Source: Candidatus Heimdallarchaeota archaeon
Lineage (GTDB): Archaea; Asgardarchaeota; Heimdallarchaeia; Heimdallarchaeales; Heimdallarchaeaceae
Assembly: GCA_030668825.1 (NCBI GenBank)
Contig: DAOVET010000090.1
Span: 1 to 10,519 of the forward strand
Direction: 5' to 3'
DNA length: 10,519 nt
Shown: positions 929 to 10,519 of the stretch, piece after piece
Position numbering within the stretch: the first letter of the stretch is position 1
Layout: every line of letters starts with the position of its first letter
The notes under the pieces: generated by a model
What the model saw: only the letters and a program-made list of their open reading frames with translations
The model's database searches: none
What the model was told of the DNA's origin: nothing
Program-made: the position numbers and the translations under genes

Positions 929-2092
929 TTATCTCTCTAGTACGATGAAGTAAAGTTCTAATTCAACTGGATTTTCTTCAAGAGGATAAGGATCTACTGT
1001 TGTTTCACCTTGAATTGCAAAAGGAATACTTGTGTTCCATCCTTCCCAATAGTTCCCTTCCATATTCGCTATATCGAACCAGGTGTTGTTTGAATAATAT
1101 GTTGATATTACATTTGCACTGGGCTGCTGACTGTTTTGTATGAAAGCATTATGGTGAATTATGTTATCTATTGATTGATCTATAAATATTCCATATTTTC
1201 TATTTTTTTCAATTAGATTATAGGTAATATTGTTATAATTTGAACCCTCTAGCCTAATTCCATTTCCAAATGTTGTAGATATATGATTGAAGCTTATGTT
1301 ATTAAACGATATAGAACTCAAATAAAGAAAAACCGCATAAATACCAAATCTGTTGTTTTCTGATATAGTGTTGTTACAGATATTCAAGTTAAATCCAAAA
1401 TGAATTTCTATTCCAGTTCCAACATTAGAAGGATCAACTTCCCACCAACGTGAATTCTTAAAGAAATGATTTAGAACAATATTCGTGAAATTAGAATCAG
1501 AAATATAAAACCCCCACTTGTTTTCGCTACAATTATTCTTCATAACATCCACAAAATGAGAGTAATCTATCATGATTCCAATATCGTTTCTGCAAACTAT
1601 ATTATTAGAAATTTCTGAATTATGGCTTTTATATAATGATATACCTACATCAGTGTACATTATTGTATTATTTTCTATTGTAATGTGATTTGAATAATAA
1701 ATATCAATTCCTGAAAACCAATCAAAAGTGTTAGAAATATTGTTGTTAATTATTTTCCCTGTTCCATTTGTTATTTTGTAAAGGAAAATTCCCCCAAGAT
1801 AACCTATGATTCTACAATTCTGAATAACAAAGTGTTTAGAAGTGTTATATATCCTAATACCTATTCCAGAGTCAGGATCGAATTCCTCAGTATTTCGGGT
1901 AATTTGAAGATTTTCAATCAGAAATGGATCAGTAACGGTTCCTGTTCCTGCAAAATTATATCTATCAAAATCCTCATCAGAATAAATAACAATTGGTTTA
2001 TCTGGATGATCTCTTGTTAGAATAACTGGGATAATTACTGATATTGAAATAAGAAGTATCAAATAAATAACGTGGAATTTTGAAATTTTCAT
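929..2092 (-). CDS. Right-handed parallel beta-helix (NosD/PbH1-like) membrane-anchored or secreted protein, 387 aa
   Basis: N-terminal hydrophobic helix, GTGTVTDPFLIE cap motif, many repeats of the type I-x-N-N-x-I-x-x-N-x-x-G-I, and C-terminal IHHNAFIQN...GNYW...DPYPL motifs typical of archaeal NosD-domain surface proteins. Confidence 0.93.
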   Translation of the reverse strand: MKISKFHVIYLILLISISVIIPVILTRDHPDKPIVIYSDEDFDRYNFAGTGTVTDPFLIENLQITRNTEEFDPDSGIGIRIYNTSKHFVIQNCRIIGYLGGIFLYKITNGTGKIINNNISNTFDWFSGIDIYYSNHITIENNTIMYTDVGISLYKSHNSEISNNIVCRNDIGIMIDYSHFVDVMKNNCSENKWGFYISDSNFTNIVLNHFFKNSRWWEVDPSNVGTGIEIHFGFNLNICNNTISENNRFGIYAVFLYLSSISFNNISFNHISTTFGNGIRLEGSNYNNITYNLIEKNRKYGIFIDQSIDNIIHHNAFIQNSQQPSANVISTYYSNNTWFDIANMEGNYWEGWNTSIPFAIQGETTVDPYPLEENPVELELYFIVLER

Positions 2093-2302: not shown

Positions 2303-2408
2303 ACAAATCCCCCCAAACGTCAGAATTATCGAAAAATTCGGCTTTAAATAGTCAAATAAGTATACTCTTCTTGATGAGATATGAGTACAAAAAAGACAAA
2401 TCCCCCCA
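2303..2408 (+). repeat. 13-bp direct repeat ACAAATCCCCCCA (2303-2315 and 2396-2408)
   Basis: Two exact copies 93 bp apart flank the ATPase promoter and start codon. Confidence 0.7.
2343..2350 (+). promoter_or_regulatory. Archaeal-type TATA box (TTTAAATA) for the MoxR operon
   Basis: Same octamer as the two minus-strand promoters, ending 30 nt before ATG 2381, with a purine-rich GAAAAA stretch shortly upstream. Confidence 0.55.
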
Positions 2409-3367
2409 GAAAAAAATCACCTAAGTCTACTTCTACAACTGGATCATCAAGTTCTAAGAAAACTCCCATTAAAGAGCTATCTGAAGATACATTTTATGAT
2501 AAAATAGATACACTGTTTGTTAAAGATAATACGCCAGATGTAGAACTAGTTAATAAAGGACAATACAAAGATGCATTCGAACTGTTGGAAGATTCAATGG
2601 CATGTCAATTAACGCCAATGTTAGTAGGGCCCCCAGGAACCGGCAAAACATTGTTAGCACGTAGTTTCGCTTCTTCCCAAGAAAGAGATTTTGAGTGGAT
2701 GACAATGGATGAATCCACAAAACCTGCACACTTTATAGGCTCTTTTGACCCCGCTGAAACAATTCGAAGAGGGTTTTCGAAAAAATCATTCATCCCTGGT
2801 GCATTAACTAAGATGATGGTATCAGGTGGACTTTTCTTAGCAAACGAGCTTAATAGAGCTACAGAGTTTGCACAAAACACTTTTCTCGAACCATTAGAAG
2901 AGAGAAGCATTTTACTTCCAAGGTTAGGGAGAATAAAAGCTGACGAGTCATTTTTCTTGATCTGCGCCGCAAACCCCGGAGACATGGCCGGAACCCATAG
3001 AATCTCGGAAGCGCTTAAAGACAGAATCAAGGTTTGGATCAAGCTAGATTATCCATCAAGGTCTGTTGAAATGGAAATCATTCATGCTAATATTCCACAA
3101 AGTAAACTATCTAAAGACTTCCTTAATTTGACACATGAATTGATTGCAGCTACTCGTTCAAGTAGAGAGATTGAGAGGCCTGCTTCTGTCAGATCCGCTA
3201 TAGCCATTGTTAAACTTGCAGGAATGAAGGAGAAGAAAGAAAAATTACTCACTATTAGTGACTTTAAGTCAATTTCAAAGATGGTTTTAGCGGGAGGAAT
3301 CAAGGCTAGACCCGGTTTTGAAGAGGACAAACTGGTCAGTAAGATTGTTGACAATGTGGTGAAGTAA
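2381..3367 (+). CDS. MoxR-family AAA+ ATPase (AAA_5 / CoxD-GvpN-CbbQ-like clade), 328 aa
   Basis: Walker A GPPGTGKT (2627-2650); helix-2-insert region HFIGSFDP...FIPGAL; Walker B-like GGLFLANELNRA; QNTFLEPLEER; sensor I ICAANP; arginine finger SEALKDR; LDYP; lid with sensor-II-like SVRSAIAI. It has a K/S/T-rich low-complexity N-terminal tail. Confidence 0.95.
   Translation: MSTKKTNPPRKKSPKSTSTTGSSSSKKTPIKELSEDTFYDKIDTLFVKDNTPDVELVNKGQYKDAFELLEDSMACQLTPMLVGPPGTGKTLLARSFASSQERDFEWMTMDESTKPAHFIGSFDPAETIRRGFSKKSFIPGALTKMMVSGGLFLANELNRATEFAQNTFLEPLEERSILLPRLGRIKADESFFLICAANPGDMAGTHRISEALKDRIKVWIKLDYPSRSVEMEIIHANIPQSKLSKDFLNLTHELIAATRSSREIERPASVRSAIAIVKLAGMKEKKEKLLTISDFKSISKMVLAGGIKARPGFEEDKLVSKIVDNVVK
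3358..3362 (+). promoter_or_regulatory. Shine-Dalgarno-like GGTGA before TTG 3370
   Basis: GGTGA ends 7 nt before the TTG and lies inside the end of the ATPase gene, supporting the TTG start and translational coupling. Confidence 0.5.
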
Positions 3368-3369
3368 CC

Positions 3370-5943
3370 TTGACAATAAGTCTTGTAGACTTTGGAGCTT
3401 TGTTTGTTGAAGAAGCTAGAAATGCTGTCCATGAAGTACCCGGAATCAAGAGAACAGTTTTTACTAGCAGACAATCACAAGCAATAGTTTCACTAGGAAT
3501 TACTAAATTAATAAGAACCCAAGAAGAACTAGGAGCTGACGATTTAGTTAACCTCTCCGTGATAACGTCTCCACCGGAAGCTCAAAAATACTCTGAAATG
3601 ATTGCTTTGAGAATTCTTTTTGGAGATGTAAGAGACGTTTTAACTCCAACTTTTGATGTTCCAACAGCTGATGGAGCTTACGAAGAAGAACCTGAAATGG
3701 ATCCTCAAATCAAAGCCCAACACTTGCTGTTAAATGAAGTACTGAGCTTTTTGGAACTACAGAAATCTGTCGATTTAAGTAAAGGTCTAGAAGAGCTTCG
3801 CTTTGCTGAATTCGCTGAGGAGGAAATCTATTCCTCTGATCCCAGCAAATACGATAAATTCAACTATGACCAGAAGCTGGACTTAGCCAGGAAAAGAATA
3901 GCTTATAATCAGATTGGTGGTCGATCTGGTATTTTACAAAATCATCAAACTAATTGGGAACAAGTATTTGATTCTGCGAAGAAAAACATTCAGAAATCTG
4001 TTCCCCATATAGATAACTCTGGGATGATTAATTCGGAATTTTTAGATGCTAGCAAAGATGTTAGGAAATTAACCAGAGAACAATCCATACGCAATTTATC
4101 TGAGCTCTTTGAAGGTGTTAAACAACCTGAAACAGAGGATATGAGTCATTATGAAGGAATTATAGATAACATGACACAAAGAGAGATTTTCAATTCACTA
4201 AAAGCAATGAATGAGCTTGAATCCCAACTAAGAAGGATGGGTCTACCTCAAAGTAAGTTCGCTCCATCACTCCAAAAAATCCAAGATTATCTTGGTCAGA
4301 AGTATAGAGATGAAGCCTCAACATTAGATGATATTCTCAACCAACCTAATCTCTTCGATGATCATCTTACACGAGAGAATCTTGAGGAATTCGTGGAAAA
4401 TTCCATGAAATATAGTTCACCGATGGAGTTGTTAGATAAAGCTAAGAAGGTTGATGATCTCTTTGGAACTAATCTTTCAAGTTATGCTTATGATAAATAT
4501 CAAGAAGAGTTTAGAGAATTGGAGATGGAAGATTTCATCGACAATCCTATTTCTTCAGCTGAATGGTTTGATTCTTTTAACCAGAAATTAGACGAATTCA
4601 AAGAGGATGAAACTCTGAATTGGGAAGATCAACATCAAATGGCTCAAGATTTACTTTCTCTAAAAGATCAAATAGGTAACGAGTTTATCTCAAATCAACT
4701 TGATGAGGAGCTTGAGCATTTTGTTGACCGAATGATATCAAGTGCAACCACTCCTGAACAATTGGTAGATTCTGTAGATTTTGCTCGTGATTATGACATC
4801 AAGTTCAACCCTCAGAAAGTGAAAGAGAAAGGTCAAGAAATCGGTATGTCCAATGAAGAAATAGCCAGATTACTAGGTGGAGCTTTTGAATATGTAAAAA
4901 CAATGATTCAAAACAAAGAAGCGACCTTTGAAAAAACTCATGTTATTCTAGATAAAGCACAACTTTCTCAACAACAGATTCAAGAACTAATTGACCTTTC
5001 AATAAATGAACAATCTGAGGGGGCTTTAGGAGCTTTAGCAACCATTGATTTAAAACAAGTAACTGATTCAATTCCTAATACACCAGAAGGACATGAGCTT
5101 CTAGAAAAGGCCTTAGGGGCTGGAGGAGGAGAGAATTTGCTCCATCAGTGGTTCGAACATGCAAATACTTTAGCTCCCTGGTTACGTCAAATTGTTAAGG
5201 ATCATGCTAAGAGAATAATGATTGATCTTGCTAAGAAGAAAGCTGCAAGTTTGATTGGATCAAGTGAGGCTGGTCCTTTACCTGAAGGAAGTACTCGACC
5301 ATATTTTCTTGGAGATGACTTGGATACAATAGATTTGGATGAAACAATCGATAACATTCTAGACCAAGGCAAGAGAATAGAAGATGTAATAATTGATGAC
5401 TTCATTGTTAGAAAAACAATTACTGGAAGACGATGTGTAATTTTTCTTGTAGATATTAGTGGATCAATGAGTGGTCCCCCCTTAGCCAGTGCCTCTATTG
5501 CAACTGCTATGCTTTTGATAACTTTTTCACGAGACGAACTAGGTGTAGCTCTTTTCGAATCTAATACTCATGTCCTATGTGAGATTGATGAAAAAGTAGA
5601 TCTTGATGAAATCGTTGACCAAGTCCTTGATCTGGAAGCACGAGGTGGAACCCAAATGCAATCTGCTCTTGAATGGGCTGAAAAGCAATTTGACCTATCT
5701 AGAAGTGAAGATAAGATGTTCATAATGGTTTCTGATGCTGGTCTTGGTGATTTCAATCGCTGCCAACCTCACTTAGAAAAGATAGCTGATTTAGGAGCAA
5801 CATGTACACTGATTGTTCCTCATACTATGTTTGGCATGGGAAATATTCAAAGTATTCTTAATGCCGCTCAAGCTGAACTTGTAACTGTCAAAGATTGGAA
5901 AGATTTTCCTGAAATAGTGAGTGAGATATTATCGAGGGTGTAA
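3370..5943 (+). CDS. Large acidic vWA (MIDAS) domain protein, CoxE-like MoxR partner, 857 aa
   Basis: C-terminal vWA domain: VIFLVDISGSM (DxSxS at 5452-5466), GGT and FIMVSD, preceded by a CoxE-like IDLDETID motif. Long D/E-rich helical middle region. TTG start lies 2 nt after the ATPase stop. Confidence 0.93.
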   Translation: MTISLVDFGALFVEEARNAVHEVPGIKRTVFTSRQSQAIVSLGITKLIRTQEELGADDLVNLSVITSPPEAQKYSEMIALRILFGDVRDVLTPTFDVPTADGAYEEEPEMDPQIKAQHLLLNEVLSFLELQKSVDLSKGLEELRFAEFAEEEIYSSDPSKYDKFNYDQKLDLARKRIAYNQIGGRSGILQNHQTNWEQVFDSAKKNIQKSVPHIDNSGMINSEFLDASKDVRKLTREQSIRNLSELFEGVKQPETEDMSHYEGIIDNMTQREIFNSLKAMNELESQLRRMGLPQSKFAPSLQKIQDYLGQKYRDEASTLDDILNQPNLFDDHLTRENLEEFVENSMKYSSPMELLDKAKKVDDLFGTNLSSYAYDKYQEEFRELEMEDFIDNPISSAEWFDSFNQKLDEFKEDETLNWEDQHQMAQDLLSLKDQIGNEFISNQLDEELEHFVDRMISSATTPEQLVDSVDFARDYDIKFNPQKVKEKGQEIGMSNEEIARLLGGAFEYVKTMIQNKEATFEKTHVILDKAQLSQQQIQELIDLSINEQSEGALGALATIDLKQVTDSIPNTPEGHELLEKALGAGGGENLLHQWFEHANTLAPWLRQIVKDHAKRIMIDLAKKKAASLIGSSEAGPLPEGSTRPYFLGDDLDTIDLDETIDNILDQGKRIEDVIIDDFIVRKTITGRRCVIFLVDISGSMSGPPLASASIATAMLLITFSRDELGVALFESNTHVLCEIDEKVDLDEIVDQVLDLEARGGTQMQSALEWAEKQFDLSRSEDKMFIMVSDAGLGDFNRCQPHLEKIADLGATCTLIVPHTMFGMGNIQSILNAAQAELVTVKDWKDFPEIVSEILSRV
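5934..5940 (+). promoter_or_regulatory. Shine-Dalgarno-like GAGGGTG before ATG 5945
   Basis: The motif is within the last codons of the vWA gene, 4 nt before the ATG. Confidence 0.45.
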
Positions 5944-5944
5944 A

Positions 5945-8900
5945 ATGATCAGCAATATGGTAAAAGGATCAAGATACTCCCGTGCTCGAGCTATTTCTGA
6001 CAGAAGTGTTGTCGAATTTAAGATTCTGAATCAGAAACCTCTCGTCACTTATTGTTTAATTCAAGGAAGTGCTCCTGAGCCATACATAGTTTTTATTGAC
6101 TTGAAGAAGAATGTTGTAGGTCATTATTGTCCCGATTTTGCTAAAGGGAGAGGATGGTGTAAACATCTTGGAAAATTACTCCTTATGTTAGATGAAAAAC
6201 ATGTCAAAGCTATTAACGATAATTTCAGAAATTTTACTATAATTAATATACAAAGCAATGTCAACAATCAAATCGACAAATATAAACAACATTTACTCAA
6301 AACAAACGGTGCTGATGAAGATATTACTCTGGAAAAACAACTAAAAATTCTTGACAATATGATGATGCAGAACCAGAAAATAGACGACATCATCCCTGCT
6401 ATCCTTTCTTCCATCAAGAAGGAGTTTTCGAAGATTGCTGATAATCTTATCCTTTTTAGATTAAATCTTTTGATTTCAGGAATTCCGAGTACATCACGAA
6501 AACTCACTTTCGAAAAAATACAAAAGCCATTATTAAGAGCTTTTTCTAAAGCAACAGCTTATTTCACAAAAAACTTCTGGATACAATCAACACCAAAGAG
6601 ACTAGAACAAGCATATATGATTAACGATGTTTCTTATGCTTTAACAAAACCATTTTCGATTAGCAAAATAACCTTTCCTGATAATATAGTTGAACAGGAA
6701 AAAATCGATGCATCCTTAATTTTGAAAGTATTATTTCGAGATGATCAAAAAGCGTATTTTGATGCTGCTAAGAAACTGGGTTTAGATTTTACCAATGAAG
6801 TTTTAGGTAAAAGAGCTGAACGAATTCTCTCTTCAATAAAAATATCCTCAACTGTTGTACCTCAATTAGAATCATGGTTGCAAACACAAGTGATAAGGAA
6901 ATATTCTTCTTTAACTCGTTATCGAAATTATGATGATTTTCTCATTTATCTGATGAAAACAGCTGGAGAAACAGTTAATTACCATCTTAAATCTGGAAAT
7001 AGAAGTGGTGGGATGACTTCTTTTCCTGTAACCCTTTTAGAAGAAAATCCTTGTTTAAACTTCATAATTGAACATATTAAGGAAAGTGAACGAGAATATC
7101 TTTTAAGTAGAGAAATACAAAATTCAAGTAAATTCTTCGATTGGTTAGCTGGTAAGAAAGTTGATTCTGTTTATGTTGAAAAACCTCGTTCTCGAGCATT
7201 GGAATCTTCTCTCAAGAAAAATGGTATTATTATTCAATGGGATATCAGCTTAAATAGAAAATTCAGAGAGCAGTTTCAAGCGTATCAAGGATCCCAGAGA
7301 TTTATCATAGATCCAACATCCCCAATTAATTCTATAATTCAACCTTTTGATTATACGCTCTGTATCCCACAGATGAAAAAACAGAGTAATGGCACAAAGA
7401 CTACCTATCCACAACAAATCTTGCTTCCTGATCAGGTAATTAAGCTTGTACTACAAGGAGTTCCTATTATTTCGAATGTACTTCGTTGGGAGGTTATCTC
7501 AAAATTCGTTAATGAAGGATACTTGTCAGGTGGGGATGTTTTAGCTTCTATAGCTCATTCTGAAAAAATGAACTTTATCTATGGTAGTTTTGAGCTAGTA
7601 AAAGCTCTTGAGGAAATTGTAATTCTGGGAAAAGCAGGTTTAACTGACAATCAATTTTTAGATTATCAGAAGAAACTTAAAAAAGAATCTTCGAGAGTAA
7701 ATGTTGCAGTACGTGATATTTGCAGAGAATTTGTTCAATCTGAAGGCAAACAACTACAAGCAGTTTTAGACCTGCTAAAACTAGATGAAAACGAAAAACT
7801 AAGATTAGTAGTTAATGGTATAAGAAACACAAACTCTATAGCTGTTTTCCGTAAGTATATTGTAAGATCAATAACTAAAAGCTACTTCAATGGAACTAGT
7901 CTTGAAAAAACATTTTTTAATCAAATAGAAACTCTCCATCACAGTCATTATTATACTGCGATGGATGTTGTTTCTGATCAGCTTTCTGTATATTATATTA
8001 ATATGGAAAATGTCCTTCTAGGAAAAATTCCAACTAGGAAACAAGTGTATGAGAATCCACTAGGGAAGATACTGATTGAGAAATTAAATTTCCAAAAAGT
8101 AGGCGATTTTACTGATACAGAGAAATTTGAAATATACTTAAATCTAATTAAAATCCGTTCTTATTTCGTTGTAGAAGAAGAAAAGAAATCAGATCCCAAG
8201 ACACAGAAACAGCTTCTTACTGATCTCATTTATCAGAGCTCTGAAGGAGAGTTTAGAGAAAGAATTCGGATAATTACTCAAATTTGCCTCTTTAATAACA
8301 ACAGGTCTTTAGATTTTCTAAGAGATTTACTAGCTGATAAAGATGAGAAAATTCGTGATATAGCATTTATTGCTTTACAATTCAGAAATGACAAAGAACT
8401 GAAGAATCATCTTAAGGAATTATTAGAACATCAACAAGAACCAGTTAGAGAGAGCTCAATAACTAATATGCTGAAACTGAGAGAATCAAAAGTATTTGAT
8501 TATGTCCTTAATGCAATGAAAAATGAATCAACTATGGTGAGAAGAATAGCTCTCAGATCTCTCGTTCAGTCGAAATTTAATCAAGAGAAAAAATTAGTCG
8601 GATCTGATGATGATAAAATATACAATTGCTTCATTTCTTGTCTGGAAGATCAAGATGAAAACATCAAAAATACAGCTATTGATAACATTATACGCGAACC
8701 TTTTGAGATTATAAAAGATATTCTCTTTAAGGCACTGGATAATGATTCCCAGCATGTTAGAAAAGTCGCAAGCGAGCAGCTTAATGAAAAAGGAGATAGT
8801 AAGTTAATAAAAAATACTCTGATGAAAGCTAAAGATGATATCGATACTGGAATCAGATCTTTTGCTTTAAAAAATATAGCTGTAAGAAAATATACTGAGG

Positions 8901-10519
8901 CTCCAAAGCTGATAGAAACTGCTGTTCTAGAGAAAAATACTGAGTTCATAAAGGATCTCATTGGATATCTTCTTATTCATGATATTCCAAAACAAAATTT
9001 GACATCTAAAACTATCCAGAAAATTATTGAATATCATGTAGCAAATAACTTAGAATTCAACAAAGCAGTCACAGAAACCTTGAAGGATTATGGAGATGAT
9101 ATTGTCCCTTTTTTAATTGAAGCTCTAAATAACAAGGGTTACACGAACAAGGGTTCTGTTGTAAGATTTCTCGAATTTCTAAATACTAAGAAAGCAGTAG
9201 AACAGATAATTAAACTTAAAGATCACGATAATCATAAACTTCGAATTTTTAATTTAGATTATATTCAAAGAAACAGAATACAGGATGATATCAAAGAGAT
9301 TGTTGAAAATGCTCTTAATGATAAGAATCCAGAAGTTGCTTTCAAAGCTGTTCAAGTATATTTAGTTGGAAACATCACAATTAAGAACTATTCAAAGGAT
9401 TTTGTCAAAGCGGCACTACGAACTTATGCTGAAAGAAATATGAGTTTCGCAGGAATTATTTTTGAAACACTTAGTAAACTAGGTGACCAAGTAATTGATA
9501 ATATTGATATAATCTTAAATTCCAACTCTATTAATACTAAACTTACTTCAATCAAACTTTTAGTAGAGATTGGTTCTAAAGATGCAATTAATAAGATTAT
9601 AGAATTACTTAATCATGATGATGAGGTCGTAAAACGAGAAGCTTATGACTACATTATCTGGATTGACCATCCTGAAGCAAGGAGTATAATCAATAAAGCA
9701 TTGAAAGAAAAAGATCAGACGATAAGGAGGATGGCTATACAAAAATTTCTCAAAGGGAAAATAGCTAAAGCAAATATCACTGATAACCTGATTAAGGCAT
9801 TAGTAACTACTCCAATAACAGGAGAGGAGTATACAAAAACTGTCACTCTCACACTCTTAAAAGTACATGATAAGGCGCTTCCTATTATCGAATCTGCATT
9901 CAAAACACAACCACTCGAAACTAAACGGTTTCTTACTGGAATACTTGCTCAATATGATACCAAAGAATCTAAAAACCTTATATCCAAACTCTTCAAAGAT
10001 AAAGATCAAGAGATAAGGCTATATTCTATGAATTTTACAAGAGCGAATAACAAAACCAAATTGAAAGAAGTTTTAGATAAGGCTGTAGAAGACAAAGATC
10101 CCAAAATCAGAGATGTTGCTCTTAGAAGTTTAACTGATAACATCCCTGTATTAAGTTATAGTGACAAACTTATCCGTTTATTAGTTCAAAACTTTTTACA
10201 GAAAAATGATCTCCCAGCTTCTAGAGCACAAGCTGCTTTGAGGAAAATTGGTAAAAAAACTATTCCATTCTTATTAGAAGGTTTAGCTAGTGATCACGCT
10301 TATGTTATAAGATATTCAGCAGAGATTCTAGGTGATTTAAAAGCAACAGAAGCTACAGACTTAATTGTACCCTTATTAACAAACTCAGAAGTACAGTTAC
10401 GACGAAGTGCTGCATATTCATTAAGAAAAATTAAGAATAAGAAAGCAGAAAAAATTATGATAGATTCATTGCATGATAACGACCTTTATGTCCGAAGAAG
10501 CTTGATTAAAGGGCTTGGA
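5945..10519 (+). CDS. Giant SWIM-like Zn-finger + HEAT-repeat protein (at least 1525 aa; 3' end runs off the window)
   Basis: Missing from the ORF track because there is no stop in the window. The frame was read manually and is open from ATG 5945 (1 nt after the vWA stop) to 10519. It begins MISNMVKGSRYSRARAI...PYIVFIDLKKNVVGHYCPDFAKGRGWCKHLGKLLL (H-x-C-x9-C-x-H, 6122-6166). HEAT/PBS-lyase-like repeats run from about 8250 (LRDLLADKDEKIRDIAFIAL, ALDNDSQHVRKVA, LLTNSEVQLRRSAAYSLRKI, SLHDNDLYVRRSLIKGLG). Confidence 0.93.
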   Translation, partial: MISNMVKGSRYSRARAISDRSVVEFKILNQKPLVTYCLIQGSAPEPYIVFIDLKKNVVGHYCPDFAKGRGWCKHLGKLLLMLDEKHVKAINDNFRNFTIINIQSNVNNQIDKYKQHLLKTNGADEDITLEKQLKILDNMMMQNQKIDDIIPAILSSIKKEFSKIADNLILFRLNLLISGIPSTSRKLTFEKIQKPLLRAFSKATAYFTKNFWIQSTPKRLEQAYMINDVSYALTKPFSISKITFPDNIVEQEKIDASLILKVLFRDDQKAYFDAAKKLGLDFTNEVLGKRAERILSSIKISSTVVPQLESWLQTQVIRKYSSLTRYRNYDDFLIYLMKTAGETVNYHLKSGNRSGGMTSFPVTLLEENPCLNFIIEHIKESEREYLLSREIQNSSKFFDWLAGKKVDSVYVEKPRSRALESSLKKNGIIIQWDISLNRKFREQFQAYQGSQRFIIDPTSPINSIIQPFDYTLCIPQMKKQSNGTKTTYPQQILLPDQVIKLVLQGVPIISNVLRWEVISKFVNEGYLSGGDVLASIAHSEKMNFIYGSFELVKALEEIVILGKAGLTDNQFLDYQKKLKKESSRVNVAVRDICREFVQSEGKQLQAVLDLLKLDENEKLRLVVNGIRNTNSIAVFRKYIVRSITKSYFNGTSLEKTFFNQIETLHHSHYYTAMDVVSDQLSVYYINMENVLLGKIPTRKQVYENPLGKILIEKLNFQKVGDFTDTEKFEIYLNLIKIRSYFVVEEEKKSDPKTQKQLLTDLIYQSSEGEFRERIRIITQICLFNNNRSLDFLRDLLADKDEKIRDIAFIALQFRNDKELKNHLKELLEHQQEPVRESSITNMLKLRESKVFDYVLNAMKNESTMVRRIALRSLVQSKFNQEKKLVGSDDDKIYNCFISCLEDQDENIKNTAIDNIIREPFEIIKDILFKALDNDSQHVRKVASEQLNEKGDSKLIKNTLMKAKDDIDTGIRSFALKNIAVRKYTEAPKLIETAVLEKNTEFIKDLIGYLLIHDIPKQNLTSKTIQKIIEYHVANNLEFNKAVTETLKDYGDDIVPFLIEALNNKGYTNKGSVVRFLEFLNTKKAVEQIIKLKDHDNHKLRIFNLDYIQRNRIQDDIKEIVENALNDKNPEVAFKAVQVYLVGNITIKNYSKDFVKAALRTYAERNMSFAGIIFETLSKLGDQVIDNIDIILNSNSINTKLTSIKLLVEIGSKDAINKIIELLNHDDEVVKREAYDYIIWIDHPEARSIINKALKEKDQTIRRMAIQKFLKGKIAKANITDNLIKALVTTPITGEEYTKTVTLTLLKVHDKALPIIESAFKTQPLETKRFLTGILAQYDTKESKNLISKLFKDKDQEIRLYSMNFTRANNKTKLKEVLDKAVEDKDPKIRDVALRSLTDNIPVLSYSDKLIRLLVQNFLQKNDLPASRAQAALRKIGKKTIPFLLEGLASDHAYVIRYSAEILGDLKATEATDLIVPLLTNSEVQLRRSAAYSLRKIKNKKAEKIMIDSLHDNDLYVRRSLIKGLG

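Follow-up and report, generated by a model that had tools for sequence, protein, structure and literature searches.

The window analysed here is a stretch of 10,519 nucleotides from a Candidatus Heimdallarchaeota archaeon (contig DAOVET010000090.1). It carries a forward-strand cassette in which the gene of a MoxR-class AAA+ ATPase is followed by that of a VWA protein and by a third gene. The TTG start of the VWA gene lies 2 nt past the ATPase stop, and the reading frame of the third gene is open from 5921, so that it overlaps the VWA stop, and continues beyond the end of the window. The features are:

2381..3367, +, MoxR-class AAA+ ATPase (P0001), 328 aa, N-terminal tail rich in Lys and Ser, alpha/beta core near aa 66-222
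3053..3364, +, the ATPase's own lid (small alpha-helical subdomain), aa 225-328
3116..3277, +, part of the ATPase lid aligned with its VWA-protein counterpart, aa 246-299
3191..3193, +, ATPase sensor-2 Arg, R271
3370..5943, +, VWA protein (P0002), 857 aa, TTG start
3370..3642, +, lid-like domain at the N-terminus of the VWA protein (N-domain), aa 1-91, helices 5-18, 33-50, 56-65 and 69-84
3379..3558, +, part of the N-domain aligned with the lid, aa 4-63
3469..3471, +, VWA-protein R34
3643..3702, +, acidic/Pro-rich variable linker, aa 92-111, least conserved and with indels in the 11-sequence alignment
3703..5436, +, long middle region of the VWA protein, aa 112-689, without a Pfam match that reaches the curated cut-off
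5437..5814, +, VWA/MIDAS domain, aa 690-815 (Pfam VWA_2, VWA_CoxE, VWA)
5896..5940, +, conserved C-terminal tail of the VWA protein, W843..FPEIVSEILSR, invariant columns in the alignment
5945..10519, +, third cassette gene; SWIM-like zinc finger at the N-terminus of the product, besides a helical region and an extended array of HEAT repeats

The window holds no chelatase H/N subunit gene, Rubisco gene or gas-vesicle gene, and no nor genes are found near the ATPase/VWA cassette.

The ATPase matches AAA_5 (5e-20), AAA_3 (9e-14) and Mg_chelatase (1e-7) in Pfam and has the Walker A, Walker B, sensor 1, Arg finger and sensor 2 of the MoxR class. We found GPPGxGK(T), the NE with E156, sensor-1 N198, R215 and sensor-2 R271 to be invariant in 23/23 aligned homologues. 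The Walker B of all 23 reads NE, not DE (Asp to Asn), a difference from the CbbQ/CbbO Rubisco activase and the GvpN/CGN MoxR group. Among NCBIfam models GvpN matches best (2.6e-17), and an assignment as GvpN equivalog was rejected because the 63 bits are far under the cut-off of 266.8 bits. TIGR02031 BchD-ChlD matches the ATPase and not the VWA protein in the same database. We also rejected the idea that the ATPase has lost its own lid and that the VWA protein supplies the replacement, since every complete homologue carries a lid; the short homologues are N-terminally truncated or fragments.

The VWA protein matches VWA_2 (3.3e-10, aa 690-789), VWA_CoxE (4.5e-6) and VWA (8.8e-6) in Pfam. Its MIDAS is complete, with D695-x-S697-x-S699, T761 and D789 all invariant in the alignment of 11 sequences, as are the tail residues W843, F846, P847, E848, V850, S851, I853, L854, S855 and R856. 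The middle region ends in an invariant motif, LIGSSEAGPLPEGxTRPY (aa 628-645), which might form a pore 'finger'. With an N-domain, a linker and a C-terminal VWA domain, all encoded next to an ATPase gene, the protein matches the build of a MoxR partner. The linker PTFDVPTADGAYEEEPEMDP corresponds to residues 92-111, where the initial annotation had seen an acidic/Pro stretch; the two strings that it had quoted for comparison also lie where it put them, from residue 247 of the ATPase and residue 5 of the VWA protein.

Because residues 5-88 are highly conserved across 10 full-length homologues (855-858 aa), the N-terminus of the VWA protein is, judged from sequence, truly translated. The first ATG (M77) as the true start, which would leave the N-domain untranslated, was rejected on the grounds that all homologues show protein-level conservation of residues 5-76.

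The similarity between the N-domain and the ATPase lid had been proposed from an alignment by eye. As a pairwise similarity this alignment is no better than shuffles: BLASTP of the ATPase against the VWA protein did not find it, and the local Smith-Waterman score is 23 compared to a mean of 26.4 (sd 4.5) for 2000 shuffles, 81 % of which score at least 23. What stands is its register, which was recovered by profile-profile comparison. In the hhalign alignment VWA residues 4-63 lie on ATPase lid residues 246-299, with R17 on R259 and R34 on R271, and the signal grows with alignment depth while the register is unchanged. An N-domain profile of 11 sequences gives P=0.06, one of 33 sequences P=7.8e-5 (probability 62 %, score 29.6) and one of 41 sequences, against a lid profile of 116, P=1.3e-6 (probability 90.6 %, 54 columns). 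Compared to a profile of the whole ATPase, the sole match is VWA 4-64 to ATPase 246-300 (P=1.2e-5). For the 33-sequence profile, the observed score of 29.6 contrasts with a mean of 11.3 (sd 2.4, maximum 18.8) for 150 column shuffles of the lid and with 12.8 for the reversed lid; 14 other VWA-family windows score at most 16.7 against the lid profile.

R17 is the counterpart of R259 in the 'ATR' motif of the lid, and R34 that of R271, the sensor-2 Arg, in 'PASxR'. R17 is kept in 40/41 N-domain sequences, R34 in 41/41 and Q35 in 38/41. The alignment of R34 with R271 supports the earlier suggestion that the arginine of TSRQ occupies a sensor-2-like position. The local profile alignment spans the first three helices only, and the fourth helix together with the invariant T66/P69/Q72 motif has no counterpart in the lid. 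The closest detectable relative of the N-domain is the lid of the ATPase encoded immediately upstream.

Mg-chelatase BchD/ChlD and cobaltochelatase CobT are among the nearest known systems. In BchD the AAA+ module is complete but degenerate. The VWA protein differs in having the lid part only: hhalign matches ATPase residues 246-300 alone, and neither Pfam nor NCBIfam finds an AAA domain in it. The analogy with BchD/ChlD drawn in the initial annotation is sound for the architecture and fails for the full AAA module, since the alpha/beta AAA core is absent. The N-domain begins at residue 1 of the protein with no P-loop core preceding it, which makes it an orphan lid homologue and not a canonical AAA+ module.

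Searches at the HMMER level detect no lid match for the N-domain. Pfam at E<=10 gave no family for the N-domain fragment, and no AAA lid family for 15 members of the N-domain family. The ATPase's own lid fragment gave no Pfam match either, indicating that this test is insensitive to lids of this clade. HMMER searches of PDB sequences with N-domain profiles returned no lid; a designed repeat protein (E 0.022) and an apolipophorin (E 0.12) were judged spurious as relatives. A feature search of the ESM Atlas with the N-domain yielded only phage-like hypothetical clusters, at a recognition value of 1401 that is under the useful range. The N-domain is a domain family outside Pfam coverage.

To describe its distribution, we ran hmmsearch with the 11-sequence profile over 1.84 billion representative proteins and obtained 22 matches, none of them an ATPase of about 300 aa. 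The N-domain is at the very N-terminus in 21 of the 22, and a C-terminal VWA domain was found in 8 of the 10 matches scanned with Pfam. One 1281-aa acidic repeat protein (P0151), matched at residues 545-603, was set aside as compositional. In 10/10 further Asgard loci, taken from across the phylum, the N-domain opens the gene directly downstream of an ATPase homologue (E 1e-18 to 1e-27), and it opens the next gene in all five loci of divergent relatives that were inspected. So far all known occurrences of the family are N-terminal in VWA proteins that partner a single ATPase subfamily, and most come from Asgard archaea. It sits within a conserved cassette of ATPase, VWA and SWIM-like protein. 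The third gene matches HEAT_2 in Pfam (1.8e-47) and has a sub-threshold SWIM match (0.055) at aa 70-90, a region shared with one distant-locus counterpart (BLASTP 2e-16). A co-directional third gene lies directly downstream of the VWA gene in 3/4 distant loci; at locus L025 the ATPase and VWA genes are present and such a third gene is missing.

The AF2 model of the N-domain is a four-helix bundle (pLDDT 91.1, pTM 0.80), with pLDDT falling to 57 at the model's C-terminus. Foldseek against the PDB gave nothing at E<=0.001, and no AAA+ lid was among the matches listed. With VIA-align over 48,161 chains, AAA+ proteins account for 14/50 of the matches listed. The segments matched by the N-domain model and, in brackets, by the model of the true ATPase lid are 269-350 (267-350) in BchI, 195-269 (179-269) in NorQ, 1237-1319 (1222-1318) in Rea1, 615-691 (611-692) in MCM5 and 701-761 (682-761) in ORC1. 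Among the matches listed, 20/50 entries are common to both models, and both draw the same background of cyclin, TFIIB, DUF507 and HAD-cap folds. The two arginines occupy equivalent positions in the two models: one where the first long helix ends, the other where the following helix starts. As predicted, the N-domain folds into a compact bundle, roughly four helices in all, which can be superposed on AAA+ lids of known structure. The initial annotation had named a failure to superpose on lid bundles, together with the lack of a profile match, as what would speak against its proposal; we looked for both and found superposition and a profile match. Its view of the N-terminal 90 or so residues as a lid-like module is supported by the profile-profile alignment and by the lid neighbours that the predicted model shares with the true lid.

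Conservation, fold, profile-level homology and gene coupling identify the N-domain as a diverged, free-standing AAA+ lid homologue that keeps both signature arginines of a lid without the nucleotide-binding core. We estimate a probability of about 0.6 that this orphan lid homologue serves as the peripheral anchor of a MoxR-VWA machine resembling NorQD and CobST.

NorQ/NorD is a MoxR AAA+/VWA chaperone for nitric oxide reductase. Its cryo-EM description, as far as the available portion goes, has the NorD N-terminal domain binding NorQ's small alpha-helical subdomain (Nat Commun 2026, PMC13036017), and the accessible part of a preprint has the CobT N-terminal domain binding the small AAA+ domain of CobS (bioRxiv 10.64898/2026.10.09.757910). 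The adaptor N-terminal domains of such machines are described, in the portions of the literature available, as mutually unrelated. That of NorD, about 224 aa long, is called unrelated and unconserved among VWA partners in the accessible text of PMC9976466, and is not reported as lid-like in the corresponding portions of PMC13036017 and PMC9976466. In contrast, the N-domain described here is about 90 aa long and lid-homologous, and the middle region that follows spans about 580 aa. In the literature searched we found no description of a lid-only module on a VWA partner.

The binding site, stoichiometry, client and origin that we infer for the system can be outlined as follows. A tandem duplication long ago, spanning the junction of the two genes, may have placed a copy of the lid at the start of the VWA gene, the simplest origin because the 3' end of the ATPase gene, which encodes the lid, lies directly against the 5' copy in the VWA gene. 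Direct repeats at nt 3050-3700 are only chance matches of 12-17 nt, and the DNA holds no trace of a duplication. By analogy with NorQD and CobST as solved by cryo-EM, the lid-like domain would act as a peripheral anchor or stator that fixes the adaptor to the small-subdomain region of one ATPase protomer, while the C-terminal VWA/MIDAS domain and the conserved tail would engage the ATPase ring. ATP-driven movement, on the same analogy, would put strain on the acidic linker as well as on the long middle region and so remodel the client, for which the SWIM/HEAT protein encoded next may be a candidate.

A single complex prediction hints that the N-domain binds the ATPase. For ATPase residues 58-328 with the N-domain the ipSAE is 0.60 (runs 0.60, 0.62 and 0.60), with 0.02 for the best control, a value that lies low among true complexes, as only 18 of 157 solved complexes score 0.60 or less, together with both mismatched pairs that passed. 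The mark itself is reached by 116/157 solved complexes and 2/215 mismatched pairs. Agreement between the runs is at least 95 % of contacts, and partner pLDDT is at least 83.

MoxR-VWA machines are widespread, and it is only with NorQD and CobST that the attachment of an adaptor to its ring has lately come into view. With an orphan lid as anchor, the anchoring domain would gain a recognisable origin in the motor's own lid. The two near-invariant arginines, R17 and R34, are targets for mutation that make the 'stator' idea directly testable.

It is conceivable, if unlikely, that the lid-derived fold has been re-used to recognise a client or partner, the SWIM/HEAT protein or another, instead of tethering the ATPase. 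The N-domain of NorD was originally proposed to give target specificity (available part of PMC9976466), the third gene is co-directional in three of the four distant loci, and true lids lack the fourth helix and the T66-P69-Q72 motif, both of which are invariant in the N-domain. Against this, the N-domain strictly co-occurs with this ATPase subfamily, L025 has no co-directional third gene, and the N-domains of NorQD and CobST were later seen on the ATPase (accessible portions of PMC13036017 and bioRxiv 10.64898/2026.10.09.757910).

We regard as improbable a pseudo-subunit role, in which the orphan lid would sit at the spiral seam and insert R34 in trans as a sensor-2-like Arg gating hydrolysis. 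That a domain lacking a nucleotide site conserves R34, aligned with sensor-2 R271 (41/41), R17 (40/41) and Q35 (38/41) suggests a role beyond the structural one, and NorQ operates as a spiral with a seam according to the available part of PMC13036017. However, the ATPase retains a complete lid of its own, with the sensor-2 Arg invariant in 23/23 homologues, and a lid is present in all complete short-listed homologues, so that no ATPase site lacks an arginine to complement. In the accessible accounts of the solved precedents, NorQD and CobST, the N-domains of the partners sit on the outer side of the small subdomain and not in the nucleotide pocket. Similarly doubtful is a regulatory 'lid in trans' that competes with or replaces a protomer's lid at the seam, bringing R34-Q35 beside the nucleotide. 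If true, the adaptor would sense or dictate how far hydrolysis in the ring has gone, and MoxR adaptors could arise by copying a piece of the motor across a gene boundary.

An unrelated four-helix bundle, ATP-cone-like or cyclin-box-like, that resembles a lid by convergence or chance is a poor prospect given an hhalign P of 1.3e-6 that grows in significance with depth and, across the whole ATPase, singles out the lid segment, far lower scores in the shuffle, reversal and natural-window controls, arginines at equivalent structural positions, and a cyclin/TFIIB/DUF507/HAD-cap background that is no argument against a lid because the true lid model draws it too.

The window carries three closely packed plus-strand genes. 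The VWA gene opens at a TTG 2 nt past the ATPase stop, and the third ORF opens at 5921, overlapping the VWA stop, while its other end runs beyond the window. Two genes upstream are oriented divergently from this cassette. The best homologues, going by database source names, are Heimdallarchaeota, Lokiarchaeota and Promethearchaeum proteins, which places the DNA in an Asgard archaeon.

Genes of the window, with Pfam matches
3-806 and 929-2092, minus strand: two adjoining NosD/right-handed beta-helix proteins (NosD 1.9e-30 and 2.5e-19)
2381-3367, plus strand: AAA+ ATPase, 328 aa (AAA_5 5e-20, AAA_3 9e-14, Mg_chelatase 1e-7; MoxR-type families)
3370-5943, plus strand: VWA protein, 857 aa (C-terminal VWA domain, aa 690-815)
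5921-10519, plus strand: third gene, a very long ORF of at least 1533 aa (HEAT_2 1.8e-47; SWIM E 0.055)

The N-terminus of the VWA protein is genuinely coding, and aa 5-88 are among its best conserved parts in an alignment of 10 full-length homologues (855-858 aa). In the same alignment aa 92-111 are variable, indel-rich and rich in acidic residues and proline. The initial annotation described aa ~5-67, within the first ~90 residues (N-domain), as an apparent copy of the lid, the adjacent ATPase's small alpha-helical subdomain, and it placed both segments and the acidic/Pro linker correctly. The proposed alignment does not stand at the pairwise level, where BLASTP of the ATPase against the VWA protein gives no lid/N-terminus match and the best local alignment scores 23, short of the shuffle average (26.4, sd 4.5, n=2000), but it does hold at the family level in profile-profile comparison. 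HMMER-level methods see no lid in Pfam, PDB sequences or a library of 1.84 billion representative proteins. When every filter is switched off, 9 ATPase ORFs from the 10 loci searched match the N-domain HMM in their lid region, all of them sub-threshold (E 0.06-2.2).

We collected N-domain homologues by word-indexed search (10), by exhaustive hmmsearch (22) and as divergent copies from relatives' genomes. All but one of the 22 matches among the 1.84 billion representatives sit at the extreme N-terminus of their protein (16 of these 21 proteins have 791-997 aa and 5 are short fragments). None of the 22 is an ATPase, and 8 of the 10 scanned with Pfam have a C-terminal VWA domain.

N-domain profiles of growing depth were compared by hhalign to a 116-sequence lid profile. 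The match strengthens from P=0.06 with 11 sequences to P=7.8e-5 (probability 62 %) with 33 and P=1.3e-6 (probability 90.6 %, 54 columns) with 41, the last pairing N-domain residues 4-63 with ATPase residues 246-299. The register originally proposed is recovered at each depth. Against the whole ATPase profile, residues 246-300 are the sole match (P=1.2e-5). The observed score of 29.6, from the 33-sequence profile, lies far above those of the controls: a mean of 11.3 (sd 2.4, maximum 18.8) for 150 column shuffles of the lid, 12.8 for the reversed lid, and at most 16.7 for 14 further VWA-family windows of 104 columns (natural and mostly helical) compared to the lid profile. A signal that rises as the alignment deepens and is limited to the right ATPase segment looks like distant homology. 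R17 ('AR', end of the first helix) pairs with R259 of the lid 'ATR', and R34 ('TSRQ') with R271, the sensor-2 arginine in 'PASVR'; they are kept in 40/41 and 41/41 N-domain sequences respectively, conservation of the TSRQ arginine having been a check put forward with the lid proposal.

A confident AlphaFold2 model of the N-domain from a 14-sequence alignment (pLDDT 91.1, pTM 0.80) has helices at 5-18, 33-50, 56-65 and 69-84. AAA+ proteins make up 14 of the 50 structural matches listed for it; cyclin/TFIIB folds, ATP-cones and Doc are among the remaining 36. Among 50 matches listed, 20 entries are common to the N-domain and the true lid, and both models land on one chain segment in BchI, NorQ, Rea1, MCM5 and ORC1. 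Nothing in the lid corresponds to the fourth helix or to the invariant T66-x-x-P69-x-x-Q72; both are presumably a later specialisation.

The N-domain begins the next gene after the ATPase at 10/10 phylum-wide loci and at all 5 divergent relatives' loci inspected. A search of 61 related genomes, the window's own included, finds it in 10; of 24 other genomes of the genus, many of them incomplete, 3 have it. The ATPase subfamily turns up in 20 of the 81 genomes sampled phylum-wide. That the N-domain is a free-standing lid homologue heading the VWA adaptor, as the initial annotation had it, is supported by the profile signal, by the neighbours of its fold, by R17 and R34 sitting at equivalent positions and by the strict coupling to one ATPase subfamily. 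Substitution for a lost ATPase lid is ruled out, since every complete ATPase homologue keeps the lid and the sensor-2 arginine. Unlike BchD, the VWA protein has no alpha/beta core, so the N-domain does not amount to a BchD-like module. The 3' part of the ATPase gene, which encodes the lid, adjoins the copy at the VWA gene 5' end, and this makes an old tandem duplication across the gene junction the most economical origin; we infer it, as no DNA similarity is left between the two.

Two recent structural studies serve as the model. The NorQD partner is laid out as N-domain, linker and VWA, with the NorD N-domain bound to NorQ's small subdomain and the linker twisted and stretched by ring activity (PMC13036017), and the CobT N-domain is likewise placed on the CobS small AAA+ domain (bioRxiv 10.64898/2026.10.09.757910). 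Partner N-domains are described as not conserved in an earlier NorQD paper (PMC9976466). The archaeal VWA protein has the same layout as the NorQD partner, a complete and invariant MIDAS (D695, S697, S699, T761, D789) and a C-terminal tail that is likewise invariant. For these reasons the lid-like N-domain is, by analogy, probably the peripheral anchor of a NorQD/CobST-like machine, where it may pack on the ATPase lid. That it instead reaches a nucleotide site, as first suggested, has a low probability, which we retain because its arginines are near-invariant. Library searches turned up no paper that describes a VWA partner carrying a lid-only module; the supplementary figures of the NorQD and CobST papers could bear on whether the N-domains there are lid-like. 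The adaptor-motor pair adds a variant to the known MoxR-VWA partner systems.

The third protein combines a SWIM-like N-terminus, CxxxxxxxxxxCxH (aa 70-90; Pfam SWIM sub-threshold), with a very long HEAT array, and could serve the ATPase-VWA pair as client or scaffold. A co-directional third gene lies immediately downstream at 3 of 4 distant loci and is absent at the other; one distant third gene shares the SWIM-like N-terminus (BLASTP 2e-16). These counterparts have just 631-793 aa, and thus the HEAT extension has the look of a fusion specific to one lineage. The ATPase-VWA-SWIM order may have a parallel in E. coli yehL-yehP-yehQ.

Just upstream of the VWA domain, LIGSSEAGPLPEGxTRPY (aa 628-645, window 5251-5304) is invariant in 11/11 close homologues and may be the equivalent of the NorD pore 'finger'. 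At a relative's locus (L008, G040:C320) the frame of the VWA homologue is interrupted by one in-frame TAA: the gene could be a pseudogene, the stop could be a sequencing error, or two genes could be present. The window's own genome (G000) also has two far shorter VWA-domain paralogues (contigs C91:28170-28922 and C69:2172-3119; open frames of 348-365 aa, 22-24 % identity) that match aa 519-854 only, leaving out the lid-like N-domain. The ATPase starts with a Lys/Ser/Thr-rich low-complexity tail (aa 1-30, window 2381-2470) that is hypervariable but present in Heimdall-type homologues and absent from Loki-type ones. Its Walker B reads hhhh-N-E (LFLANELNRA; aa 150-160, window 2828-2860) where D-E is usual. 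Both N155 and E156 are kept without exception across the 23 aligned ATPase homologues, and therefore the whole subfamily has Asn where the Mg-coordinating Asp usually sits.
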